This document shows positions 1 through 10,121 of a stretch of DNA of 10,121 bases, piece by piece. The notes beneath the pieces were generated by a model. That model was not told the origin of the DNA, did no database searches, and saw only the letters and a list, made by a program, of their open reading frames with translations. The translations under genes were made by a program, and so were the position numbers. Source of the DNA: Candidatus Thorarchaeota archaeon (GTDB lineage: Archaea; Asgardarchaeota; Thorarchaeia; Thorarchaeales; Thorarchaeaceae); assembly GCA_029858305.1 (NCBI GenBank), contig JAOUFI010000083.1, positions 1 to 10,121 of the forward strand, written 5' to 3'. Numbering within the stretch: position 1 is the stretch's first letter; each line of letters begins with the position of its first letter.

Positions 1-175
1 TAAGAATTAGGATAATAATTGCACCGATAACCCTCATAGATACTCCTCAATTGGACGTATATTGAATCATGGATATTAGTATTTCTAGAGAAGAAGTGGC
101 GCCGCCGGTAGTATCATCCTCAATATACGTCCTTGACAGGAATATGCAATCCGCTATCACAATAGAACCGGGCGT

Positions 176-370
176 GTGTCTGTAGCTTGGACTGCTGAAC
201 CGCAAGGGCTCATTGAATCTATTAAACTGGGTATGGTCGCTTCGCCCAATGATGTTGTAAAGAAGAATTCTGTGAAGCAAGTTATAGAAAGCCATCCTGA
301 GTATGCGACAGAAGCAATACAACAGCTCAAAGATTCTGGGATTGAAGTAGACAAATGGTGGGATTTCTAA
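176..370 (+). CDS. Short hypothetical protein or 3' remnant of a degraded gene
   Basis: 64-aa GTG-started ORF with protein-like composition, ending 12 nt before the 3' end of the convergent tRNA-Asn. The same frame upstream has several stops. No recognisable motif. Confidence 0.35.
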   Translation: MSVAWTAEPQGLIESIKLGMVASPNDVVKKNSVKQVIESHPEYATEAIQQLKDSGIEVDKWWDF

Positions 371-405
371 GAAGGGAGAAGGCGCCATCGGGAGGGCTCG
401 AACCT

Positions 406-435
406 TTGGCCGTACGCTACGAAGTGTAGCGCACT
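406..435 (-). other. tRNA intron 3, non-canonical position 50/51 (T stem), 30 nt
   Basis: GGUC/GGCC 4-bp central helix, 3-nt bulges GG^A and AA^A, 9-bp intron stem GTGCGCTAC-ACTTC-GTAGCGTAC. Excision restores the T stem GGAGG/CCTCC. Confidence 0.85.
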
Positions 436-442
436 CCGACCA

Positions 443-472
443 TTCGTCACGCACCACGAAATGTGATGCGTT
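443..472 (-). other. tRNA intron 2, non-canonical position 43/44, 30 nt
   Basis: Relaxed BHB: AGUU/GACG helix (one A-G mismatch), bulges GU^A and AA^U, 9-bp stem ACGCATCAC-ATTTC-GTGGTGCGT. Excision leaves a normal 5-nt variable loop TGGTC. Confidence 0.8.
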
Positions 473-478
473 ACAACT

Positions 479-506
479 GTCTGGCTCTCAACCAGCGGGT
501 GAGAGG
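479..506 (-). other. tRNA intron 1, canonical position 37/38, 28 nt
   Basis: CUGU/CCAG central helix (one mismatch), bulges UA^C and AC^A, intron stem CTCTCA/TGAGAG, closed by the anticodon stem ACAGC/GTTGT. Confidence 0.9.
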
Positions 507-537
507 TAACAGGCTGTCGCTCTACCTAGCTGAGCCA

Positions 538-588
538 CGATGGCACAATCAGGGAGTCGGCCGGGAATGCAATATTAACGTTGCTGTT
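538..588. repeat. Direct repeat copy 1 (first 7 nt of tRNA-Asn + leader + promoter)
   Basis: 46/51 identical to 2040-2090 by manual ungapped alignment. Confidence 0.9.
572..584 (-). promoter_or_regulatory. BRE/TATA promoter of tRNA-Asn (GCAACGTTAATAT)
   Basis: TTAATAT lies about 28-34 nt upstream of the mature 5' end. An identical 13-mer lies upstream of the CAT tRNA (7706-7718). Confidence 0.75.
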
Positions 589-702
589 TGGAACCAAGAG
601 TAACATCGCGCTCTTGTTAACATTGAAATAACTCAAGGACGATAATGGATGCAGGGGATATGACTGAGAAATAAAAGGCAGAATACGATTATCGTAGCGG
701 TA

Positions 703-1212
703 TTGATTGGTTTTCTAATTTTATTATCAGGAATAGTAATCTACATTTCACAACCTGGACTTTACTCCCTGTTGTATCCAGTTCCTCCCAGCGAAACACC
801 TCCAGAGGATTATGACACTGTTGAAACAATTCTAGTAGGGCCATTGCTACTGAATGCAACTGCAAATGCAACAGGAAGTATTCCGCACCAAGGACCCATT
901 ACAATCAGAATGAATCTCAAGATCAACATTACAAACACAGGGAATGAGAGCGTCACTAGTTTCCGAGCTATAAGAATGAGCGTATACAATGCTGAATCCG
1001 AATTGTTCTACACTTTCAGCTTTCAATATGATTGGAATGCCACCATTCCTTTTGGCGAAACCGTGATCTTGATTTACCAGAATCATGAAACTACGATTAT
1101 GGCTCCGTACGAGCCGTTTCACATCTATGCCAGAGTCTTGGTCACATTTGATACTGATTATGAAACAGTCCTCACAACTCCTCTCATTAACGGTATGTTT
1201 GCAATTGAGTAG
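703..1212 (+). CDS. Exported / membrane-anchored hypothetical protein, probably a beta-rich surface glycoprotein
   Basis: N-terminal hydrophobic helix, Pro-rich linker, several N-x-T/S sequons (NAT, NIT, NES). The frame is open from 664 (LRNKRQNTIIVAVLIG), so the true start may be earlier. Confidence 0.75.
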   Translation: MIGFLILLSGIVIYISQPGLYSLLYPVPPSETPPEDYDTVETILVGPLLLNATANATGSIPHQGPITIRMNLKINITNTGNESVTSFRAIRMSVYNAESELFYTFSFQYDWNATIPFGETVILIYQNHETTIMAPYEPFHIYARVLVTFDTDYETVLTTPLINGMFAIE

Positions 1213-1455
1213 TCTAAACCCATCTTAAAAATAGAAATGGGGATGCATCGTCTGGCGACATTATTATTGGATAATATACCATCCCCCATAGTAACCACTG
1301 CGGTTCTACTAGTTCATTATCGATGCAGAGCCATAGCAATTAGTGAAAATGGAGTTTTTCGCAATGAGTGCTGCAATTCAAAAGAGATGACAATGACAAT
1401 AGTCGTATCACTTAATACATCGTTGGCAAATCGAATCCTAAGGTAGGTTCTGGAA

Positions 1456-2019
1456 ATGGTCGAGAACAAAGAGAAACAAGATAGGCACTTTCCTGTTTTT
1501 GCACAGGATAACTTACTCAGAAGATTACTTAGTAACTCCAAGAAATTCAATCCCTATGTTACAGATGGTCAAGTGGTTGCTGACCTTGGCTGTGGTCCAG
1601 GCTATTTCACACTCCCTTTAGCTGAGTGTGTTGGCCCCCGTGGCAGGGTCTATGCAATTGACTCAAATGAAAAAGCCATCAGAGCATTGGAAAAGAAGGC
1701 AAACAAACATGGGTATAGCAACATCGAGGCCTACGCCTCATCCGCATCTGACCTGAGTTTCATTAAAGACGGATCGGTTGACTTTGTACTTGCCAATGGC
1801 CTGCTTTGTTCCATGGCACCGCAACATCACGAGTCAACTGTCAACGAAATAAAGCGTGTCCTCAAGCCAGAAGGACAGGCGTATATTGCTGTGGACAGAG
1901 GTCGATTCAGTTATGTGGGAGAATCGGAGTGGGAGAGAATACTTGAAGGATTCAGAATCGAACGCAGGGGCGATCCCAAGATGGGGGATAGGTGGGCTGT
2001 TGTGTCCATAAAACCGTAG
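1456..2019 (+). CDS. Class I SAM-dependent methyltransferase (UbiE/Methyltransf_31-like)
   Basis: Motif I VADLGCGPG, post-I VYAIDS, motif II SVDFV, motif III RVLKPEG. AGGTAGG SD-like sequence upstream. Confidence 0.9.
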   Translation: MVENKEKQDRHFPVFAQDNLLRRLLSNSKKFNPYVTDGQVVADLGCGPGYFTLPLAECVGPRGRVYAIDSNEKAIRALEKKANKHGYSNIEAYASSASDLSFIKDGSVDFVLANGLLCSMAPQHHESTVNEIKRVLKPEGQAYIAVDRGRFSYVGESEWERILEGFRIERRGDPKMGDRWAVVSIKP

Positions 2020-2039
2020 TAATCCTTTGCAGAATCCTG

Positions 2040-2090
2040 CGACGGCATAATCAGGGAGTCGGCAGGGAATGCAATATTGATGTTGCTGTT
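2040..2090. repeat. Direct repeat copy 2: orphan tRNA-Asn promoter + 7-nt tRNA start
   Basis: 46/51 match to 538-588. The TATA element is altered (TTAATAT to TCAATAT on the minus strand) and no tRNA body follows. Confidence 0.9.
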
Positions 2091-2155
2091 GAACATAACA
2101 AGATACAAACACAACAAGAATGAACAAGTTCTCTTGATGTATCCCAAATCATTCT

Positions 2156-2195
2156 AAAAAGAAGAGCGCTGCCCCGACTTTGCGAGGTCGGAGCA
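2156..2195 (-). terminator. Putative hairpin + U-tract terminator after the 2225-3127 gene
   Basis: Minus strand reads TGCTCCGACCT-CGCA-AAGTCGGGGCA followed by GCGCTCTTCTTTTT, about 30 nt after the stop. Confidence 0.5.
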
Positions 2196-2224
2196 AGCAA
2201 TAATTCCTATAGATTCAGACTATC

Positions 2225-3127
2225 CTATTGAGCAGAGATTTCCTGTTGAGCTAGTTTGCCTGTTACAGACAGGTAGATTCTCGTAAATACGAGAAACATG
2301 GCTGGTAGAGCGAACAGGATGAGCACGAAGGCTCCGATGGCCGCCCATGCTATGGTAATTGAAAAACCGAGATCAATCACGCCTGGAGTCATAAAATAGA
2401 CTGCATAGACAGCTACTGGTAAGAAGAAGATTACAATGAGGACTACGAAGATGGTCCAAGCACCAAACACCCTCACTAAATTCTCCTTTGTCAGTCTGAA
2501 CGAGGCCTTGAGACTCTCGATAGCACCCAGACCGTTTGTGGACGCAGGAAGATGCAGCATCAAGAAACCACCAACGATATAGATGTAGATGAAGGTGAGG
2601 ATAGCCACAGGCAGACCCCATCCTGCCGGGAGGCTCGAGAAGCCAGTCAGAGCTGTAGCTGCAAGACCGACAAGCCACAATGGAACGAAGAAGACTAGTG
2701 ACCAGAGCACCCCAGCTCCAAGATATGACCGCAGATTCTTCCTAAGATATCCGAATGCACTCTCTGCATGAGTACCACCAGTCAATATTATCTCATTTGA
2801 CATTCCATAGATTGCACCAAATATCCAAGTCCCGATGGCGAAGATAGGAATGAGGAATAGGAGTCCGATTGCACCGCCACCAAATAATCCTGCTAGTGGA
2901 TTGGAGCCCATAAAGCCGCTGAGCCCCTGGAAGTATGACGCAAGGGCAAGGCCAAATGCCTCCGGATCACCTGGATTGGCAAGCCACGCCATCACGAGTA
3001 ATGGCGAGATTACAATCATGAATATAATTCCCACAAGTATTACTAAACCAAACATTGCTAACAAGAAACTCAACATGTTCTTCTTAGCGTATCCAAAACT
3101 TATTTTCACATCATCCATGAAAGACAT
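2225..3127 (-). CDS. Polytopic integral membrane protein, function unknown
   Basis: 300 aa with about 6 hydrophobic helices. The segment GAIESLKASFRLTKENLVRVFG is typical of DUF975/DUF7544-like membrane families. Canonical SD GAGGTGA before ATG. Confidence 0.85.
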   Translation of the reverse strand: MSFMDDVKISFGYAKKNMLSFLLAMFGLVILVGIIFMIVISPLLVMAWLANPGDPEAFGLALASYFQGLSGFMGSNPLAGLFGGGAIGLLFLIPIFAIGTWIFGAIYGMSNEIILTGGTHAESAFGYLRKNLRSYLGAGVLWSLVFFVPLWLVGLAATALTGFSSLPAGWGLPVAILTFIYIYIVGGFLMLHLPASTNGLGAIESLKASFRLTKENLVRVFGAWTIFVVLIVIFFLPVAVYAVYFMTPGVIDLGFSITIAWAAIGAFVLILFALPAMFLVFTRIYLSVTGKLAQQEISAQ

Positions 3128-3291
3128 GCTTTCACCTCAAACAAAATGAAACTAAAACGCATAGTCTTCTTTCAATAAAAAACTTAGGGTAGAGCTCTAC
3201 AGTGCTCGGTAGAATTTTCGCTTTACCTGCTGAGTTACTATAACCAATCAGAGAGTTTACAGTAAATGCAATAACAACATTGTCGTTTTGC

Positions 3292-4089
3292 TTACCCTCC
3301 AAACAAAAATGTAAACACATTATCCAGTGACATCATAACAAGGAATCCGACCATCAATCCCCATGTAGCTAGCCGTTCATTACCGCCTGCATGACTCTCC
3401 GGAACCATCTCATCCCCGACGACAAAGACCATTGCGCCCGCGGCAAACGCTAGTCCATAGGGCAAGAGACCTATCGCAAAGGTGACAACAGACACTCCTA
3501 AGAAACCTCCTATAGGTTCTACCAATCCAGTAATCAGGGCAAGAACCGCAGCGTACTTTCTTGAATAACCTTCACGTACAAGTGGTGCAGCTACTGCTAG
3601 TCCTTCAGGAACATTCTGCAGACCTATCGCCACAGCCACAGACATACCAACAATTGTATCCCCGCCCCCATAAGACACTCCCACAGCAAGACCCTCCGGA
3701 AAATTATGTATTGTGATGGCAATTACTAATAACCATACTCTTGCCAATCGTGAAGATGGTCCCTCAGGTCCCTTCTTGAAATGCTCATGCGGCAAGTACT
3801 TGTCCGTCAGATGGACGAATACAGCGCCAAGTGTGAACCCGAGACCAACAATGGTGAATACACCAACCCAGCCACTCTCCTTAACCACAGAATGATCAAA
3901 AGCCGGAACAAGGAGACTGAATGCAGAGGCTGCAAGCATCACTCCTGCAGCAAATCCAAGCATCAGGTCAAGTGTTCGTCTACTAAAGTCCTTCTTAACA
4001 AAGATAGGCAGAGCTCCGAGCCCCGTAGCTCCACCAGCCAAGAGACTAGCCAAGAGTCCCATAGAGAATGGATCGGAGAATAGCTGCAT
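3292..4089 (-). CDS. zupT: ZIP family divalent metal transporter (ZupT/GufA-like)
   Basis: LGFAAGVML, loop PHEH, TM4 HNFPEGLAVG, TM5 QNVPEGLAVA, GLVEP, EMVPESH. GAGGA SD. Confidence 0.95.
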   Translation of the reverse strand: MQLFSDPFSMGLLASLLAGGATGLGALPIFVKKDFSRRTLDLMLGFAAGVMLAASAFSLLVPAFDHSVVKESGWVGVFTIVGLGFTLGAVFVHLTDKYLPHEHFKKGPEGPSSRLARVWLLVIAITIHNFPEGLAVGVSYGGGDTIVGMSVAVAIGLQNVPEGLAVAAPLVREGYSRKYAAVLALITGLVEPIGGFLGVSVVTFAIGLLPYGLAFAAGAMVFVVGDEMVPESHAGGNERLATWGLMVGFLVMMSLDNVFTFLFGG

Positions 4090-4408
4090 GTGTAATTCCT
4101 CAAATAGCCAAGGAGACTACCTTGAGGTATAAGGCAATTACTGTTAGTGTTTGGAGAACGGAACTCGAATCAAAGGTATAGAGTTGGCCTCAGTTTCCCG
4201 AGGCCAGAGAAAAGACAAACGAATTGGGGGTGGTTGCAGTTGATGTTATTTGATTCTCACCAAAGTACCTCCAAACACCTTGTCATCATGGTATAATCTG
4301 TAAGATGCCTTATTAGCTCCTATCTTGGTCATATTGAGCCAAACAATCACGGAAGGGTCAATATGTAGGTTTGTGTATATGGTAGTATGAAGAACTAATA
4401 TTTGGAGT

Positions 4409-4906
4409 GTGGAAGTATTGTCCGAAGGAGACCGAGAAACACCAAAGGAGCGTTGGCGTAGATCGCCTGAGCTTCTTGCTGATGCGTTTGCAGTCTGGAA
4501 AAAGGCTGGCGGAGAGCTCAACCCAAGCTCTGTTGTTGCTACAATCGATGAAGATGGTGCACCAAGAGTTGCGCCTTTCGGAAGTATGCGAGCGGTCACT
4601 CCACAACTTCTTCGGTTCATTGCTCATCGGTATCACGATACCCTTGCCAATCTGAAACGCGACCCTCGAATAATGGTAGCCATGATATGCTCACCAGACA
4701 TTGCTGTGAGTGTTCGTGGCCGTGCAAGAGTGGTCGAGGAACCATTCTCTCTTGACCAGAACTATGCCCTGGTCGAGATTGACATAGATGAGGTGAAGAA
4801 TGATATGCCGGTGAGAATTGGAATAGATACTGGCATCTCTATCTCACCAAGTGGACCCTTTGTAGCCTGGTGGAATAATCTCTGGGAGAGAATGGAGAAA
4901 AAATAA
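4409..4906 (+). CDS. Pyridoxamine 5'-phosphate oxidase-like, FMN-binding split-barrel protein
   Basis: VVATIDEDGAPRVAP, TLANLKRDPRI and VSVRGRARVV motifs. The start may be TTG at 4418. Confidence 0.85.
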   Translation: MEVLSEGDRETPKERWRRSPELLADAFAVWKKAGGELNPSSVVATIDEDGAPRVAPFGSMRAVTPQLLRFIAHRYHDTLANLKRDPRIMVAMICSPDIAVSVRGRARVVEEPFSLDQNYALVEIDIDEVKNDMPVRIGIDTGISISPSGPFVAWWNNLWERMEKK

Positions 4907-4957
4907 GTAATGGACGCACTATAATGCAAATGAATCGTTCTAGCTGGACGAAATATA

Positions 4958-5506
4958 CTATTCCGGCACTGATAACAGCTCTTCATATCGAACAGCAGGT
5001 TGACCATCTTTACGTCTAGAACACCAGATTCCAAGAAGGCAGATACCAGTAACCCCGACCAAAATTCCTACGAAAAATGGTGTGACTATTGATGATTGAA
5101 CATACGTGGTGATTTGGGTCTGCGTCGTACCAGTCTGATCAATATAATATATTTCAGCATGCAGATTGATCGTTGCCGCTGAGATCGTGTTCGAAAAGAT
5201 GACATACCAGTCATCGTCATAGGGAACCGTGAAATTAAGACTGTGACTAGTAGCTTCAATGTGCTCATACAACAATGAAGTCTGATTATTCAGCCACCTA
5301 CTGTAGTTGCCGCTGTCACAAATCGCGAACTCGATAGTGATATCAGCTGAAAAAGTTCCTACAATCCTCCAGCCACTGCTTGCATTTCTATGAACTGTAT
5401 AAAACTGTCCGTAGCCAAGATTCACATCTATATCGTGAGCATAAACCCCCATTGGTAACAGAAAGATACCTAACAGGACTATAGTAAGTAATATCTTCTC
5501 TCTCAT
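4958..5506 (-). CDS. Type I membrane protein (signal peptide, beta-sandwich, C-terminal TM), possibly p24/GOLD-like
   Basis: Signal peptide ending VYA, beta-rich ectodomain (FTVPYDDDWYVIFSN), sequons, single C-terminal TM and short tail. ATG 5506 is preceded by GGGGA. The GOLD call comes from recalled similarity only. Confidence 0.75.
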   Translation of the reverse strand: MREKILLTIVLLGIFLLPMGVYAHDIDVNLGYGQFYTVHRNASSGWRIVGTFSADITIEFAICDSGNYSRWLNNQTSLLYEHIEATSHSLNFTVPYDDDWYVIFSNTISAATINLHAEIYYIDQTGTTQTQITTYVQSSIVTPFFVGILVGVTGICLLGIWCSRRKDGQPAVRYEELLSVPE

Positions 5507-5668
5507 GAAAGTCCCCAATATACATTCACAAGGAAGGATTTCTGATTTGTCTCCTAGGAATATTCATTCTACCAGAGTCAAGCCATAAAATTATCGTGGA
5601 CTTTAGGGGACTACTGTGCCTAGGAAGCATCTACACCTCATTCGAGCCTCTTCACTGTCGCAATGTTT

Positions 5669-6049
5669 CTACTCAAAAGGTCGTTCTGCTGGACGGCGGG
5701 ATGTTGTACGACCACCACTATCGACGCGTTTCAGTGCATTCCTTATTTCCCTTTCTGCCCATCCCTCTGCCCCGTTCTCAGCCCCCCAGAAATCCAGACG
5801 GAACAACCCCTCTCGTCCACCGCTGGCAAGAACAGTCACAACTAATTCTCTCCAAGTGGCTTTGTGTTCTACGATTACTGTAACTGTTAGTGTCTGTGAA
5901 TTTCGAAGCATTAGTTTGTCACGGATGAATACACCGACTGTACCTTCTTCAAAGTCCCAGACTCTACTGTACTTATTTGCAAAGCCACTGTGCAAGAATT
6001 CCAGTAGAGGCGTCAGGCAGTAGTCTTCAGCTCGAATTTCGATTGGCAT
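5669..6049 (-). CDS. Conserved hypothetical protein, DUF6054-like
   Basis: 126 aa from ATG 6049 (SD GAGAGGGAG). The pattern MLRNSQTLTVTV...SGGREGLFRLDFWGAE resembles DUF6054 as I recall it. The longer N-terminus in the ORF track looks non-coding. Confidence 0.7.
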   Translation of the reverse strand: MPIEIRAEDYCLTPLLEFLHSGFANKYSRVWDFEEGTVGVFIRDKLMLRNSQTLTVTVIVEHKATWRELVVTVLASGGREGLFRLDFWGAENGAEGWAEREIRNALKRVDSGGRTTSRRPAERPFE

Positions 6050-6374
6050 CCAAATCTCCCTCTCATCACGGTCTAATCTTGCTTTACACGGTCCTGTTCT
6101 CTGAACAGTTTCTGCAAAGCGCGTTTTCTCATGAAATCTTTTGAATGAAAGAAGAAAAGGATTTGCAGACAAACTGCTCTTTCCAATGTAGGTGCTCTTT
6201 GTAGATACGATGCTGTACATAAGTAAGTGGTGAGCCCGGTGCGACTTGAGTTCAAAACCAATAGAGTCGTTTAGAGAATATGAATTAGCTATCCCTCCAT
6301 AGAGAAGTCTCTCTATGGTACAAAAATACAAAAATAAGCTATCTATATTATCAAAGGATATCGGGGAGATTACC

Positions 6375-7568
6375 TTGGCGACCTATGACCTAATTGTTGT
6401 TGGCGGAGGTCCAGCAGGTGCTACCTGTGCCCGAAGAGCCGCTCAACGTGGGCTTGAAGTATTGGTTCTTGAAAAGGCACATCATCCACGGCGAAAGGCC
6501 TGTGGTGGGGGTATCACAGTCAGAGTGAGGGATGCCCTAGACTTTGATTTGTTCTCTGTGATTGAGCGCGAAGTATACGGAGTGAGAATATACTCTCCTG
6601 GCGGATTGATTATCGAGCAGTCGTGTTCAGAGGCTTCCGGATTCACTGTTCGTAGAGAAGACTTTGACTCTCTCCTTCTTGATAAAGCCAAAGAGGTAGG
6701 AGCAGAGGTCATTGAAGGAGCTACGGTCACAGATGTCATAGAGGAGTCTGGTTCAGTCCTTGCAGTCACCGAGGATGCGACATACAATGGTCGTCTACTT
6801 GTGGGGGCTGATGGTGTCAACAGCGTTGTTGGAAGGAAAACGGGTATCAATAACGGTTGGCGAGATGATGAGGTGGGTCTCTGTATAGAAGCATCTGTCC
6901 CCTTGGATTCCTCCGAGATCTCAAGGATTGTACATGAGAAGTCCCTCGTTGAGATCTACTTTGGGCCAGTTCTCTATGGCTATGCATGGGCTTTTCCCAA
7001 GAAGACAGAGTTCAGTCTTGGTATAGGTGTACGCATTAGCAAAATGGAAAATTTCAAGGACGAGTGGAAGAGGTTTGTTGCTGGTTTTGAAGAGCGTCAT
7101 TCAGTCAAGTGTGACATGCGTGATGCCACTGCAGCCAGACTACCACTACGCGGTTCAATTAGGAACACGTGTTCTAAGAGAGTTATGCTAGTTGGAGATG
7201 CCGCTGGATATGTAGCTCCTGTCACCGGTGAGGGAATCATTTACGCAATTGAATCTGGAAAAATTGCCGCTGAGGTAGCTAGTGAAGAAGCACCAAAGGC
7301 ACAGAATGCAAATGTGTTCTCATATGAACAGAGATGTAAGGCGGCTTTCAACCAGGACCTAGTTATAGCTCAGTCATTAGCCAAACTTCTCCTGAAATCC
7401 AACAAGAACATGGAGTTAGCCTGTCAAGCAGCATATACTGACCAAGTTATGAGAGAGTATGTCATGGAACTCGTAATGGGCATAAGAGCATACAAAGAGT
7501 CAAGAGATCGCATTGTCAAACGCTTACTCAAAAGACATCCTATGAAGGCATTGAAACTAGTGGTATAG
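6375..7568 (+). CDS. Geranylgeranyl reductase family FAD-dependent oxidoreductase (DGGR-like)
   Basis: YDLIVVGGGPAG, PRRKACGGG, LVGADG, YAWAFP (YxWxFP), LVGDAAG..PVTGEGI. Likely TTG start at 6375 after GGGGAG. Confidence 0.93.
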   Translation: MATYDLIVVGGGPAGATCARRAAQRGLEVLVLEKAHHPRRKACGGGITVRVRDALDFDLFSVIEREVYGVRIYSPGGLIIEQSCSEASGFTVRREDFDSLLLDKAKEVGAEVIEGATVTDVIEESGSVLAVTEDATYNGRLLVGADGVNSVVGRKTGINNGWRDDEVGLCIEASVPLDSSEISRIVHEKSLVEIYFGPVLYGYAWAFPKKTEFSLGIGVRISKMENFKDEWKRFVAGFEERHSVKCDMRDATAARLPLRGSIRNTCSKRVMLVGDAAGYVAPVTGEGIIYAIESGKIAAEVASEEAPKAQNANVFSYEQRCKAAFNQDLVIAQSLAKLLLKSNKNMELACQAAYTDQVMREYVMELVMGIRAYKESRDRIVKRLLKRHPMKALKLVV

Positions 7569-7590
7569 ACCTCGAAGATTCGGTGCACGA

Positions 7591-7667
7591 TGGTGGGCCC
7601 GGGGCGACTTGAACGCCCGACCTACAGGTTATGAGCCTGCTGCTCTACCAAGCTGAGCTACGGGCCC
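7591..7667 (-). tRNA. tRNA with CAT anticodon, most likely tRNA-Ile2; intronless, CCA encoded
   Basis: GGGCCCG TA GCTC AGCTTGGTA GAGC A GCAGG CTCATAA CCTGT AGGTC GGGCG TTCAAGT CGCCC CGGGCCC A CCA. The GGGCCC acceptor is the archaeal Ile type, and it lacks the A1-U72 pair and three G-C anticodon-stem pairs of initiator Met. Confidence 0.9.
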
Positions 7668-7705
7668 AGGCAGTCACTTGGTGAAGGTTGAGCAAGTGAT
7701 TTGGG

Positions 7706-7718
7706 ATATTAACGTTGC
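7706..7718 (-). promoter_or_regulatory. BRE/TATA promoter of the CAT tRNA (GCAACGTTAATAT)
   Basis: Identical to the tRNA-Asn promoter 13-mer; about 40 nt upstream of the mature 5' end. Confidence 0.7.
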
Positions 7719-7879
7719 GAATGGAAACTCAAACTCGGAAGTAGAGTAAGTTACCAGTTCATCATATGCTACACTCCGATTCTAAAAAACCTACGAGTGC
7801 AATGAAATATAGCTGCAGGAATTCTCCGACTTTATATTCCCGAATCAAAACTACGAGAAAACTACTAGGGTTTGCTCAT

Positions 7880-8230
7880 ATGATTCTCATGTTCACTTCT
7901 GAGCATTGTGTGTGGTGTGATATACTCAAGAGGATGCTTAATGAAGAGTCAGAGGAGCTTGGCGGTCTCCAACCAATTTTTGAGGTAGATGTCGATAGAC
8001 ACCAACACATAACAGAAGCCTATGGGATTCTTGTTGTCCCAACTCTTGTTGCAGGTATGCAAAAGATCTCTGGGGTTCCAACGCAGTCTGACTTGAGGTC
8101 CTTTCTCCTCCACCTGAATCCTGTACCACAATCTCAGTCAGAACGTGCAGCTCCGAGTCATGTGTTACGCGAAGTACATAATTTGAGAGGATCTCAAGGG
8201 GAAGAGAAATCTGTCGTGCGAACATTGTAG
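7880..8230 (+). CDS. Thioredoxin-family protein (CVWC) with a C-terminal extension
   Basis: MILMFTSEHCVWC, FEVDVD, YGILVVPT (cis-Pro motif). TTTATAT TATA at 7831-7837 supports a start at 7880 rather than 7766. Confidence 0.88.
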   Translation: MILMFTSEHCVWCDILKRMLNEESEELGGLQPIFEVDVDRHQHITEAYGILVVPTLVAGMQKISGVPTQSDLRSFLLHLNPVPQSQSERAAPSHVLREVHNLRGSQGEEKSVVRTL

Positions 8231-8267
8231 CAATTTATAGATCTCAAACTCCTTTGTAGCCTCCTGC

Positions 8268-8280
8268 GCAATCTTAATAA
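8268..8280 (+). promoter_or_regulatory. BRE/TATA promoter of tRNA-Glu (GCAATCTTAATAA)
   Basis: Matches the GCAAnnTTAATAW pattern of the other two tRNAs; about 29-35 nt upstream of the mature 5' end. Confidence 0.7.
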
Positions 8281-8308
8281 CTACTTAGCAAAGTTCGCTG
8301 TCCAAACA

Positions 8309-8386
8309 GCCCCGATGGTGTAGTCCGGCCCAGCATCTAGGGTTTTCGACCCTATGACCCGGGTTCGAATCCCGGTCGGGGCACCA
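8309..8386 (+). tRNA. tRNA-Glu(TTC), intronless, CCA encoded
   Basis: GCCCCGA/TCGGGGC acceptor, TAGGG-TTTTCGA-CCCTA anticodon arm (TTC at 8345-8347), CCGGG-TTCGAAT-CCCGG T arm, ACCA end. Confidence 0.97.
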
Positions 8387-8609
8387 TTTTCCATTATATC
8401 ATTCAAAAAGGAGATTTTGAGATTTCCTTCACTTTCTGTAAAGATAGATAGACAAGAATCTCAATCAGTTCCCGCATGTGCTATGTGCAGAAGGGGAAAT
8501 ATAACAAGAGTAGGATAAGTAACTCATTTTTGAATCACACCAGAGAGTGATTCTAGCAACACTTTTTTGGATGAGCGACTAGGAGTTCTAAGATGAGGGC
8601 ATAGATACC

Positions 8610-9896
8610 ATGACAATTATGCTTACGTACACGAAAGAGGATGGTACACAAGAACAGGTCGAGTATGAAGAGTATGTTGAAAATATTGCACTCCATTTAC
8701 ATGGGATAGCCAGTATTGATCTGACCCCTCTTGCTACCTGCACCAGCCTGAAGGACCTCTATCTGCGTACGAATCAGCTCAAGTCGATAGACCTGAGTCC
8801 TCTGGCCACCTGCACCAGTCTACAGTACCTCAATCTGAACAGTAATCAGCTCAAGTCGATAGACCTGACCCCTCTTGCCACCTGCACCAGTCTGGGAGCC
8901 CTCGATTTGGAATATAATCAGCTCGCGTCAATAGACCTGACCCCTCTAGCCACTTGCACCAGCCTGAAGGCCCTCAATCTGGGTTCGAATCGGCTCCAGT
9001 CGATAGACTTGACTCCTCTTGCTACCTGCACCAGTCTACTGAGACTATTTCTGGACAGAAATTATCTCCAGTCGATAGATCTGACTCCTCTGGCCACCTG
9101 CACCAGACTTCAGGAACTTAATCTAGACAAGAATGAGTTTCAGTCCAAAGATGCACTATATTCATGGCTCAATCTTTATGAGTATAAGTTCCAGTTCAAC
9201 GATGCACTATATTCATGTCTCAAGCACTTGAAAGTCATATACAAAATACCAATCAATACCTACCCGTGGTCCTTTCTGTACAGAATTACTGAACTATTCG
9301 GGAAAGACTATCGCGTGCAGCAGGACATCCTCTATGCAATGGGATTCAGGAACTATGGGTTCATCGACTGCGACCTATCTGACTTCTTTCTCTCCATCCC
9401 TGCAGACACTCCTATTGATCTGGCTCGTGAGCAGGTTAGAGATAAACTGCTGGAGGATGTCGTTCAAGCCATTGACCAAGGACGAACAACAACAGGTCTC
9501 AATGTTGAAGAGATGAGCGCTCAGCACGTGGAGATAGCAGAGAGGTCTCAACGAATCAGCGATCTTCGAAAAGCAGAGATGAAACGAGTTTCTGTCGAAG
9601 TGAGTCGACCTAGGGGAACTAAGAGAACTAAGGAGGTGTACCTATGGGAACTATGGTTCACCGCCCATGGCTATGAAGTCCTGACCGCTCTTGAGATGGG
9701 CTACAGTACTGGTCTCAAAAGTAAACGTTTTGAAGAAGTCAAAAAAGCCTTCAAAGAGTTGGGATTCAAGCTGAAGACTGGCAAGAGATCAGGGGTAGAG
9801 ATGAGTGAGGAATTGAAACAGGCTATCTGGTGGATTATTGAGCACAAAGGACTCTCGTGGGAAATTCCTAATAGATGGGTCGGTCATTTACGATAG
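8610..9896 (+). CDS. Leucine-rich repeat protein with a helical C-terminal domain
   Basis: Six 24-aa repeats IDLTPLATCTSLxxLxLxxNxLxS; GAGGG SD. The C-terminal region (YPWSFL, YGFIDCDL, LWFTAHG) resembles the Thorarchaeota LRR family as I recall it. Confidence 0.95.
   Translation: MTIMLTYTKEDGTQEQVEYEEYVENIALHLHGIASIDLTPLATCTSLKDLYLRTNQLKSIDLSPLATCTSLQYLNLNSNQLKSIDLTPLATCTSLGALDLEYNQLASIDLTPLATCTSLKALNLGSNRLQSIDLTPLATCTSLLRLFLDRNYLQSIDLTPLATCTRLQELNLDKNEFQSKDALYSWLNLYEYKFQFNDALYSCLKHLKVIYKIPINTYPWSFLYRITELFGKDYRVQQDILYAMGFRNYGFIDCDLSDFFLSIPADTPIDLAREQVRDKLLEDVVQAIDQGRTTTGLNVEEMSAQHVEIAERSQRISDLRKAEMKRVSVEVSRPRGTKRTKEVYLWELWFTAHGYEVLTALEMGYSTGLKSKRFEEVKKAFKELGFKLKTGKRSGVEMSEELKQAIWWIIEHKGLSWEIPNRWVGHLR
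8715..9146 (+). repeat. 6 x 72-bp tandem repeat encoding the LRR units
   Basis: GACCTG at 8790 and 8862 shows the 72-nt period. Constant blocks are near-identical, separated by divergent codons. Confidence 0.95.
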
Positions 9897-9937
9897 TCGA
9901 CCCTATGACCCGGGTTCGAATCCCGGTCGGGGCACCA
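9897..9937 (+). repeat. tRNA-Glu 3'-half duplicate (attR-like)
   Basis: 41/41 identical to 8346-8386; lacks the tRNA 5' half. Confidence 0.97.
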
Positions 9938-9957
9938 CCTTTTCCAGACTTGTTTTA

Positions 9958-10121
9958 CTAATTAAGCGACAAACGCATATTGAAATTTGGGGAGCTATAG
10001 GAGTGCGTGAGGGCTCCTGAAGAGATGATGTCAATTGTGTTTCGCGCATAATCTCGTATGTTCTCTTCACTAATTCCTCCAGAAACCTCGAGAATGACTT
10101 TCTTTCGGAGACCTTCATTCT
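9958..10121 (-). CDS. nadC: Quinolinate phosphoribosyltransferase (nicotinate-nucleotide diphosphorylase), 3' end only
   Basis: Manual translation from 10119: NEGLRKKVILEVSGGISEENIRDYARNTIDIISSGALTHSYSSPNFNMRLSLN*. LEvSGGI and ISsGALTHS are NadC C-terminal motifs. The gene runs off the window edge and is absent from the ORF track. Confidence 0.9.
   Translation of the reverse strand, partial: NEGLRKKVILEVSGGISEENIRDYARNTIDIISSGALTHSYSSPNFNMRLSLN

Follow-up and report, generated by a model that had tools for sequence, protein, structure and literature searches.

Positions 383 to 544 of a Candidatus Thorarchaeota archaeon contig (JAOUFI010000083.1; the window, meaning the whole stretch of 10,121 nt that was analyzed) raise the question of whether a tRNA gene split into four exons, two of them only a few nucleotides long, can still yield a working tRNA, and how its introns came to be there. 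The first-pass annotation of this DNA had proposed a tRNA-Asn gene with three introns of the bulge-helix-bulge (BHB) type. We consider it very likely that nucleotides 544-383 form a functional tRNA-Asn(GUU) gene, the only one detected in the genome, that is driven by a promoter, spliced by EndA, and ligated by RtcB.

Anatomy of the gene and its spliced product

The tRNA-Asn(GTT) gene, read from 544 to 383 on the minus strand, contains three short introns (I1 to I3) and four exons (E1 to E4), including micro-exons of 6 and 7 nt:
383..544, minus strand: tRNA-Asn(GTT) gene of 162 nt, divided into four exons by three introns, 3' end at discriminator G73
507..544, minus strand: E1, 38 nt; acceptor 5' strand, D-arm, anticodon-stem 5' strand, and anticodon-loop positions 32-37 with the anticodon GTT
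479..506, minus strand: I1, 28 nt, in the canonical position 37/38
473..478, minus strand: E2, the 6-nt micro-exon AGTTGT; position 38 and anticodon-stem 3' strand 39-43
443..472, minus strand: I2, 30 nt, at the 43/44 site, with a relaxed motif
436..442, minus strand: E3, the 7-nt micro-exon TGGTCGG; variable loop 44-48 and T-stem 49-50
406..435, minus strand: I3, 30 nt, at the 50/51 site, with a canonical BHB core
383..405, minus strand: E4, 23 nt; T-stem 51-53, T-loop, T-stem 3' strand, acceptor 3' strand, and discriminator G73

The spliced 74-mer was assembled from the coordinates before it was scored with ARAGORN. Removing 506-479, 472-443, and 435-406 gave a 74-nt product that the program recognized as tRNA-Asn(gtt) with all stems paired in a perfect cloverleaf (21/21 stem pairs and a 7-nt anticodon loop with GTT at 34-36). 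The exon and intron coordinates first proposed, together with the sites 37/38, 43/44, and 50/51, proved exact; the micro-exons at 473-478 and 436-442 were likewise as described, and introns do make up more than half of the gene (88/162 nt). Moving the boundaries of I3 by +1 or +2 left the spliced product identical. The G directly after the acceptor 3' strand is discriminator G73, which is an identity element of tRNA-Asn. The 3' flank of the gene reads CCT, so CCA is incompletely encoded. The D-loop comprises 9 nt, which shifts the tRNA numbering.

Detection by standard tools and other tRNA genes of the genome

The expectation that standard scanners would miss or mis-call such a gene was borne out for ARAGORN and Rfam. 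Default ARAGORN missed it, the Rfam tRNA model gave no match to the unspliced gene at E<=1, and the intron mode of ARAGORN (-i) mis-modeled it with a single 68-nt intron. The intron-less ortholog of genome G018, which departs from the spliced gene in acceptor pairs as well as in a single T-stem pair and a single base of the D-loop, reached 71.2 bits against the Rfam tRNA model (cut-off 29), and the bits dropped to 50.8, 52.3, and 35.8 when one or two introns were present.

Searches with blastn (precursor and spliced form), ARAGORN -i, and a structure-based scan detected no further tRNA-Asn in the 88.9%-complete assembly; a second one may lie in the missing part. About 36 host tRNA genes were found, of which seven measured 129-142 nt and the 162-nt tRNA-Asn gene was the longest; overall, the tRNA genes of this genome are interrupted only to a moderate degree. 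The structure-based scan skips genes with an interrupted T-stem, the tRNA-Asn gene included, so its count is a lower bound.

Orthologs support the exon junctions

Eighteen orthologous genes from the same genus carry 54 introns in total, distributed over 7 sites. The number per gene ranges from zero (one gene) through one (one gene), two (four), three (five), and four (five) to five (two genes, in the congeners G001 and G003). All 18 spliced forms have the cloverleaf fully paired (21/21) and share the same 7-nt anticodon loop, which rules out a chance cloverleaf. I2 is absent from 14/18 orthologs, I3 from 13/18, and I1 from 2/18, and in each case the exons are joined precisely at the proposed boundaries. 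In addition, a metagenome DNA contig connects window position 405 to position 507 through 13 letters corresponding to E2 plus E3, and it therefore represents an intron-less allele. The T-stem pair 50:64, which bridges E3 and E4, covaries between species (G:C, T:A, and C:G). At the level of sequence comparison with orthologs, the junctions are confirmed independently of the splicing motif. Compensatory changes in the inner helices were found at seven positions in the I1 family, one in the I2 family, and three in the I3 family, those of the I1 family being drawn from 13 distinct orthologous introns.

Ortholog junctions were taken from an anchored alignment, since a whole-locus spliced alignment gave spurious long "introns" where acceptor stems differed. 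The ortholog set left out a second copy in G016 with a diverged 3' part (L018), members of other families in the phylum (L019, L023, and L037), tRNAs with a CTT anticodon (L024 and L025), and loci with no clean Asn gene (L030-L036 and L038). Seven of the 25 genomes of the genus (G004, G011, G012, G013, G017, G019, and G022) yielded no Asn ortholog with this query.

Splicing motifs of the three introns

The motif of I3 is a canonical BHB, with 4/4 pairs in the central helix and an inner helix of 9 bp. It was the best of 169 registers scored and is already present in the minimum-free-energy (MFE) fold of the precursor. I1 was also the best of 169 registers; its outer helix has 5 bp, its inner helix 6 bp, and its central helix 3/4 pairs (T35 opposite C), a pattern shared by 16/16 of the 37/38 introns of the orthologs. 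This motif is near-canonical, short of a strict BHB. I2 has 3/4 central pairs (with an A38 opposite G mismatch), an inner helix of 9 bp, and an outer helix of 0-1 bp, and 2-3 of 168 shifted registers outscored the proposed one, making it a relaxed HBh'-type motif with a competing register. By the strict definition of preprint 10.64898/2026.10.13.758758 (four central pairs with a flanking helix), I3 alone counts as a BHB. The first-pass statement that folding requires the removal of three BHB-type introns thus needs qualifying as to intron class: one motif is strict, one near-strict, and one relaxed. Genus-wide, at least 3/4 central pairs were present in 51/54 introns, and the register was the best in 42/54.

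The competing register of I2 would shift both cuts inward by one base (+1,-1), leaving the gene, I1, and I3 unchanged. It can form a canonical BHB (4/4 central pairs, bulges of 3 nt, and A38:T44 as the closing pair) and would give a 76-nt tRNA with two extra A and a 7-nt variable loop, yet the 14/18 orthologs without I2 show the 5-nt variable loop TGGTC, which is reproduced only by the product of the proposed (0,0) register. The (+1,-1) register scores higher (16 vs 13 in the precursor, and 15 vs 12 with the other introns removed), and the (0,0) register was the best in 0/4 of the orthologs bearing a 43/44 intron; however, the register score applies no penalty to pairable bulge bases, so shifts into the long hairpin are artificially favored. 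The (0,0) register of I2 is also homologous to the canonical cut sites of I3, with the same layout, and the I2 pair 2:24, which forms only in this register, has changed from A:T to G:C in one ortholog in a compensatory manner. We thus judge the (+1,-1) register to be quite unlikely and retain the (0,0) register.

The motifs of I1 and I2 overlap at gene positions 68-70, where the I2 central helix and the I1 outer helix (the anticodon stem) use the same three bases of the E2 micro-exon. The two motifs compete for these bases, and splicing therefore requires either a change of conformer in the precursor or a set order of intron removal. Each motif calls for a conformer within 0 to 3.4 kcal/mol of the MFE.

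Upstream element, tRNA-Asn remnant, and contig integrity

Alignment of the upstream regions of the 18 orthologs revealed one conserved element:
571..588, minus strand: AACAGCAACGTTAATATT, the conserved upstream element, covering -44 to -27

Within this element, 17/18 columns were conserved at >=80% in the 18 orthologs and the flanks were not; two matches occur in the window against 0 expected. The element is probably a BRE/TATA-like promoter.

The locus has been rearranged, as is shown by a truncated remnant of a tRNA-Asn gene at a distance of 1.5 kb. We considered that the gene itself might be a decaying or non-functional tRNA-Asn copy that retained its insertions, with the working gene in the unassembled 11%. 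Yet its promoter element matches the genus consensus exactly, whereas the copy belonging to the remnant has two mismatches. On the other hand, the gene lacks an encoded CCA, which 14/18 orthologs possess, and the only RNA run sharing words with the window (0.09 share) had no contigs matching it; its exons nevertheless form the 21/21 cloverleaf with the same anticodon loop as all orthologs. Moreover, compensatory changes are present both in intron helices and in intron-spanning stems, indicating purifying selection on splicing. The assembly is incomplete, but three methods found no other Asn gene in it. A non-functional copy is extremely unlikely on this evidence, and we continue to regard 544-383 as the working gene.

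A separate question is whether this allele belongs to this genome. The contig depth reaches 95-137 over 530-580, with 6.95 and 14.2 on the two sides, and the promoter/5'-exon segment is common to co-occurring relatives. As the link crosses this shared segment, we are surer that the gene exists than that its allele belongs to this genome. The allele could derive from a co-occurring G003-like Thorarchaeota strain that was mis-assembled through the promoter/5'-exon repeat: the gene body is 92% identical to that of G003 (query positions 30-162), and the sister genome G007, which is 96% identical in RtcB and in the GGR-like neighbor, has another intron set. The leader (545-570), however, resembles the leaders of G007 and of the remnant and differs from that of G003. 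Furthermore, a DNA contig covering 330-551 with 0 differences ties the whole gene to seven leader bases, a second one covers 532-594 with 0 differences, and the remnant-bearing organism needs a tRNA-Asn, with the second promoter copy facing the gene. We therefore hold mis-assembly to be unlikely, though not negligibly so, and treat the allele as belonging to the host genome.

Host and splicing enzymes

The host is a Thorarchaeota (Asgard) MAG, as a neighboring gene shares 96% and 82% amino acid identity with two Thorarchaeota MAG records; this settles the affiliation in favor of Asgard, as first suspected, and not Thermoproteales. A PF01974 profile search found two EndA loci in this genome, one on contig C44 (about 5259-5825, minus strand) and one on contig C5 (about 14052-14753, plus strand). 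The alpha subunit (188 aa) aligned over its full length with the catalytic subunit 3P1Z_B of A. pernix (151 bits), keeps the catalytic residues Y126, H134, and K165, and places K43 opposite APE K44 in an ungapped alignment, which corresponds to the L1-loop lysine. The second paralog is beta-like and has an Asn at the position of the M. jannaschii catalytic His. Provided that the TTG start is genuine, its N-terminus would also carry an acidic extension of ~60-70 residues.

The EndA enzymes of A. pernix (3P1Z/3AJV), S. tokodaii (2CV8), and P. aerophilum (2ZYZ) are (alpha-beta)2 enzymes with an L1/CSL loop. The host proteins resemble the A. pernix enzyme in the full-length alpha alignment, in the retained Tyr/His/Lys and loop lysine, and in a second paralog without the catalytic His. 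In contrast to the crenarchaeal enzymes, the beta-like paralog matches EndA of M. kandleri (E 2e-26) and M. jannaschii (4e-17) more closely in sequence than it does the crenarchaeal beta subunit 3P1Z_A (0.005). The sequences suggest a two-paralog, broad-specificity (alpha-beta)2 enzyme whose assembly and substrate range are predictions, in line with the type of EndA that the first-pass annotation had linked to such tRNAs. RtcB is also encoded in the host genome (587.5 bits).

From the anatomy of the gene, its comparative junctions, the geometry of the motifs, and the presence of both enzymes, we infer a processing pathway. Transcription would probably start from the BRE/TATA-like element at 571-588 and give a precursor of ~165-170 nt. 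EndA would then excise the three hairpin introns at 37/38, 43/44, and 50/51, and RtcB would join all four exons, the micro-exons of 6 and 7 nt among them, into the 74-nt tRNA, with CCA addition after ligation. The precursor may be processed in order, for example with I2 leaving before the anticodon stem locks, or it may switch between conformers.

A possible intron cassette

I2 and I3 lie 7 nt apart within the gene and have a common layout (1+9+5+9+4+2). In the host genome (G000), the two are identical at 17/30 positions, a value matched in 523/20,000 shuffles and thus weakly significant alone; the claim of homology rests on a family-level test and not on this pair. Elsewhere in G000, the search for copies of the cassette gave only chance matches of 12-16 nt. 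We see roughly even chances that a single 30-nt hairpin cassette is present twice, as I2 and as I3, and that the pair is a direct trace of a BHB intron gained through local copying. In the simplest case, copying would have proceeded from I3 to the 43/44 site. The central-helix strand of the 43/44 copy would then have drifted from a GGCC-like sequence to GGCG (G014 and G001) and to GACG (G000 and G003), a change that would improve pairing with the new exon context.

RtcB was used as the tree marker, giving a single-gene tree without G003. The GGR-like neighbor was dropped as a marker, as paralogs exist and the syntenic ortholog occurs only in G007, G005, and G014.

Discussion

Multi-intron tRNAs were reportedly described in Thermoproteales (Pyrobaculum and Thermofilum) by Sugahara in 2008 and Fujishima in 2010. 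The gene studied here resembles that system, with up to three introns per gene, non-canonical sites, BHB dependence, and an (alpha-beta)2 EndA with a specific loop; it differs in that the host is an Asgard archaeon and not a member of TACK, and in having a related intron pair 7 nt apart in one gene.

The triple-intron tRNA was initially considered notable for an Asgard genome, but a claim of novelty does not survive comparison with the literature. PMC5829648 already reports an Asgard (alpha-beta)2 EndA with an L1 loop, naming K44, and its predicted tRNAs of a Thorarchaeota MAG include a "multiple introns" category. In Atabeyarchaeia and Freyarchaeia, 92-95% of tRNA genes bear introns according to PMC11291895, and preprint 10.64898/2026.10.13.758758 describes up to five introns per gene in 90 Asgard genomes. 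Since these sources came before, the gene is a fresh example of a kind already known. The main text of the preprint has 0 occurrences of the string "Thorarchae", and its supplement may include Thorarchaeia. It finds little intron copying between tRNA types (1.5% vs 0.6% shuffled) and does not describe copying within a gene, although its supplementary tables and those of PMC11291895 may list such pairs.

As in Atabeyarchaeia and Freyarchaeia/Jordiarchaeia, several BHB-associated introns of ~20-30 nt occur per gene at canonical and non-canonical sites. The genes are partly missed by standard annotators and the host has two EndA paralogs, as in the Asgard multi-intron set, whose maximum of five introns is equaled in the congeners G001 and G003. 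The differences from Atabeyarchaeia, Freyarchaeia, and Jordiarchaeia are the Thorarchaeota lineage, the moderate degree of interruption in the genome, and the within-gene copying suggested by I2 and I3. What is added here is the proposed cassette homology of I2 and I3 and the truncated tRNA-Asn remnant 1.5 kb away.

For annotation, the consequence is that an essential tRNA is lost here by default ARAGORN and Rfam. The gene illustrates the degree of fragmentation that an essential single-copy tRNA gene can reach in an archaeon related to the ancestor of eukaryotes. It also offers a concrete substrate for the range and order of Asgard EndA action, which the discussion of preprint 10.64898/2026.10.13.758758 describes as lacking biochemical demonstration, while the 18 orthologs with 54 introns and one intron-less allele form a comparative series for intron gain and loss. 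How Asgard tRNA introns arrive is a question left open in the main text of that preprint. If the cassette reading is true, this question would find a natural system in the genus's tRNA-Asn locus, with its cassette pair, its 0-5 introns spread over 7 sites among congeners, and the truncated ancestral tRNA-Asn nearby.

Gene structure and annotation

The tRNA-Asn(GTT) gene comprises four exons and three introns, which account for 88 of its 162 nt:

544-507, minus strand: tRNA-Asn exon (E1)
506-479, minus strand: intron at 37/38 (I1)
478-473, minus strand: micro-exon (E2)
472-443, minus strand: intron at 43/44 (I2)
442-436, minus strand: micro-exon (E3)
435-406, minus strand: intron at 50/51 (I3)
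405-383, minus strand: tRNA-Asn exon (E4)

When the four exons were concatenated from these coordinates, ARAGORN called the 74-nt spliced product as tRNA-Asn(gtt), with a 7-bp acceptor stem, a 4-bp D stem, 5-bp anticodon and T stems, a 5-nt variable loop, and a discriminator G. The boundaries and intron positions proposed in the first-pass annotation were exact, and its expectation that scanners would miss or mis-call the gene was borne out. Default ARAGORN and Rfam at the gathering threshold missed it, matching only tRNA-Met and tRNA-Glu in the window; Rfam at E<=1 gave no match at the unspliced gene, and the ARAGORN intron mode recovered the locus and anticodon but modelled a single 68-nt intron. 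We regard a functional, EndA-spliced, triple-intron tRNA-Asn with these junctions as highly probable. A mechanical ORF (136 aa, GTG start, 47-457, minus strand) overlaps the gene across its 3'-terminal 75 nt; it matched no Pfam family and probably starts further downstream or is not a gene.

Upstream of the gene, at 571-588 (-44 to -27), lies an 18-nt block that was conserved across the 18 aligned orthologous upstream regions, unlike its flanks; it is a putative BRE/TATA-like promoter. CCA after G73 is encoded in 14 of the 18 orthologues but not in the window gene, whose flank reads CCT.

The host assembly (G000; 3.04 Mb, 205 contigs, 88.9% complete) yielded no second tRNA-Asn by precursor blastn, spliced-form blastn-short, or ARAGORN -i (41 calls, one Asn), in answer to whether this is the sole tRNA-Asn. 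The window corresponds to positions 1-10121 of its contig C113. A neighbouring 417-aa FAD-dependent reductase shares 96% and 82% identity with records titled Candidatus Thorarchaeota archaeon. Thirty Rfam tRNA matches in G000 exceeded the cut-off, ten of which were 105 nt or longer, and a structure-based scan added five candidates. Among the approximately 36 tRNA genes, seven measure 129-142 nt and the longest is tRNA-Asn at 162 nt; the genome is moderately interrupted, with tRNA-Asn the most interrupted tRNA gene detected. The window genes tRNA-Met(CAT) (7594-7667) and tRNA-Glu(TTC) (8309-8383) lack introns and scored 69.4 and 59 bits, respectively, so interruption is gene-specific within G000. 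The tRNA-Glu gene and its 60-nt upstream region have a near-identical copy at contig C43:222-296 (one difference in the 60 nt), which suggests that the bin contains redundant strains or that the segment is duplicated.

Orthologues and junctions

BLAST of the 162-nt gene against 40 relatives revealed orthologues that lack precisely one or more of the introns, so that pieces of the query adjoin. Anchored spliced alignment of the loci yielded 18 clean tRNA-Asn(GTT) genes, each from a different one of 25 congeneric genomes. Boundaries were refined independently of the splicing motif, after which each of the 18 spliced products formed 21 of 21 cloverleaf pairs and had an identical 7-nt anticodon loop. 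Their 54 introns occupy seven sites (22/23, 28/29, 37/38, 43/44, 50/51, 57/58, and 59/60); one gene has none, one has one, four have two, five have three, five have four, and two have five. In the five-intron genes, from G003 and G001, two introns enclose a micro-exon of 5-6 nt in the region of the D stem and position 26. The intron-less gene of G018 scored 71.2 bits against the Rfam tRNA model, and one- or two-intron orthologues scored 50.8, 52.3, and 35.8 bits. Separately, a remnant resembling the one described below for the window, made up of a promoter block with approximately the first 22 nt of tRNA-Asn, lies about 1.39 kb upstream of that intron-less gene (G018:C112) and precedes an inserted ORF. 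For the single T-loop intron of G009, placed at 57/58, no BHB could be recognised at any of the equivalent boundaries (2/4 central pairs, inner helix 0).

Stems spanning introns covary between species, at acceptor pairs and at T-stem pair 50:64, whose joint change ties micro-exon E3 to E4. In metagenome run X1, a low-depth contig joins window position 405 to 507 through 13 letters equal to E2 plus E3. This contig represents a co-occurring relative whose allele lacks introns, and it constitutes DNA, not RNA, evidence.

Splicing motifs

BHB geometry at each junction was scored and compared with that of the 168 alternative registers obtained by moving either boundary by up to 6 nt. I1 has three of four central pairs, an inner helix of 6 bp, and an outer helix of 5 bp that is the anticodon stem; I3 has all four central pairs, an inner helix of 9 bp, and an outer helix of 1-3 bp, and its motif is present in the minimum-free-energy (MFE) fold. 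For neither did any shift score higher (0/168). I2 has three of four central pairs (the fourth being A opposite G), an inner helix of 9 bp, and an outer helix of 0-1 bp, and was outscored by two shifted registers in the full precursor and three with the other introns removed. The best alternative, cut one base further in on each side (+1,-1), gives a fully canonical motif, but the variable loop would gain two A residues. We prefer the original register (0,0), since its product has the same 5-nt variable loop as the 14 orthologues lacking I2, intron pair 2:24 shows a compensatory A:T to G:C change, and this register is homologous to the canonical cut sites of I3.

Across the genus, 51 of 54 introns had at least three of four central pairs and 42 were in the best register. 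Two-sided inner-helix changes (covariation) occurred at seven positions in the 37/38 family, one in the 43/44 family, and three in the 50/51 family. Section 2.4 of the 2026 preprint 10.64898/2026.10.13.758758 cautions that chance often yields relaxed motifs; under its strict rule, I3 alone of the three introns is canonical.

Gene positions 68-70 (G39-T41, in E2) serve both the I1 outer helix and the I2 central helix, so the I2 motif cannot coexist with a complete I1 motif. In predicted folds, enforcing a motif cost 3.4 (I1), 3.1 (I2), and 0.0 (I3) kcal/mol relative to the MFE of -73.7 kcal/mol; the three cores together, I1 being without its outer helix, cost 6.5 kcal/mol. The precursor would therefore switch conformers or be spliced in an order.

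Splicing enzymes and published Asgard tRNAs

The PF01974 profile identified two loci in G000. The 188-aa product (contig C44) aligned over its full length with the Aeropyrum pernix (A. pernix; APE) catalytic subunit 3P1Z_B (151 bits) and keeps the Tyr, His, and Lys, the His being the residue changed to Ala in entry 3AJV. Its Lys43 aligns with Lys44 in the specific loop of the APE subunit, a residue named in PMC5829648. The 233-aa product (contig C5) matches EndA of M. kandleri and M. jannaschii and retains the Tyr and Lys, with Asn at the catalytic His position; we read it as a putative structural, beta-like partner. Provided that its TTG start is genuine, its gene (C5:14052-14753; L002:1105-1806) would encode an acidic, Asp/Glu-rich extension of about 60-70 residues at the N-terminus. 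On both sides of the gene lie tRNA candidates (C5:12311-12385 and C5:16076-16204, the latter 129 nt). RtcB was also found (587.5 bits). The pair agrees with the statement in PMC5829648 that Asgard archaea have an (alpha-beta)2 EndA with an L1 insert.

The available text of PMC5829648 (2018) also covers tRNAs predicted in a Thorarchaeota MAG, includes a 'multiple introns' category, and takes incomplete tRNA sets to imply undetected disrupted genes. PMC11291895 (2024), in its available text, gives introns in 92-95% of tRNA genes of Atabeyarchaeia and Freyarchaeia, with several in over half. That of the preprint covers 90 Asgard genomes, with up to five introns per gene, the number in the G003 and G001 genes, and gives 2.2 introns per gene in focal families, 0.91 in other families, and 25-30% missed by tRNAscan-SE; it describes splicing as not shown experimentally and the route of intron arrival as open. 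The literature searched contained no paper devoted to Thorarchaeota tRNA introns. This kind of gene is therefore already known and the window gene adds an example; the first-pass interpretation is supported except for its novelty, which the literature has overtaken.

Origin of the introns and of the allele

The 43/44 and 50/51 introns, compared using window 443-472 and 406-435 plus extracted loci L008-L013, are all 30 nt long and share one layout (1 nt, 9-bp stem, 5-nt loop, 9 nt, 4 nt, 2 nt). Over 20 cross-species pairs, identity between the two families averaged 20.1/30 and reached 25/30; most other intron-family pairs share 3-13/30 bases. In permutations keeping architecture and sequence relatedness, the observed mean was reached in 2 of 20,000 and the maximum in none of 20,000. 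From these alignments we conclude that I2 and I3 are homologous; copying would have run from I3 to I2, with the 4-nt strand adapting later. A length of 30 nt also occurs in the 59/60 introns and in one 22/23 intron, which have lower identity to these cassettes (means approximately 11-14/30).

A tRNA-Asn remnant at 2090-2040 (minus strand) consists of a degenerate promoter block (2073-2090, two mismatches), a leader, and no more than the first 7 nt of the gene. These 7 nt have the acceptor sequence of sister genome G007 and differ from the intact gene. Two ORFs separate the remnant from that gene:

703-1212, plus strand: ORF without a Pfam match
1456-2019, plus strand: ORF, SAM-dependent methyltransferase

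Synteny with G007 begins right of the remnant and breaks at it: window 3293-7613 is colinear (88.8% nucleotide identity), and 1-2039 is not, except for the gene and promoter. The G007 downstream flank maps to G000 contig C48. A tree of RtcB, a single gene, places G000 and G007 as sisters (support 92/85), yet their tRNA-Asn genes share the 37/38 intron only, whereas the G000 gene body is 92% identical to that of G003. An incoming G003-like allele carrying about 1.5 kb of cargo may have replaced the ancestral gene; differential loss from an intron-rich ancestor and an assembly mis-join are possible explanations too. Contig depth at the promoter/5'-exon segment was 95-137, versus approximately 7 and 14 on its two sides, although contigs with zero differences do cover 330-551 and 532-594. 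The existence of the gene is secure, its assignment to G000 less so. In this genus, recombination or integration may recur at the 5' end of tRNA-Asn.
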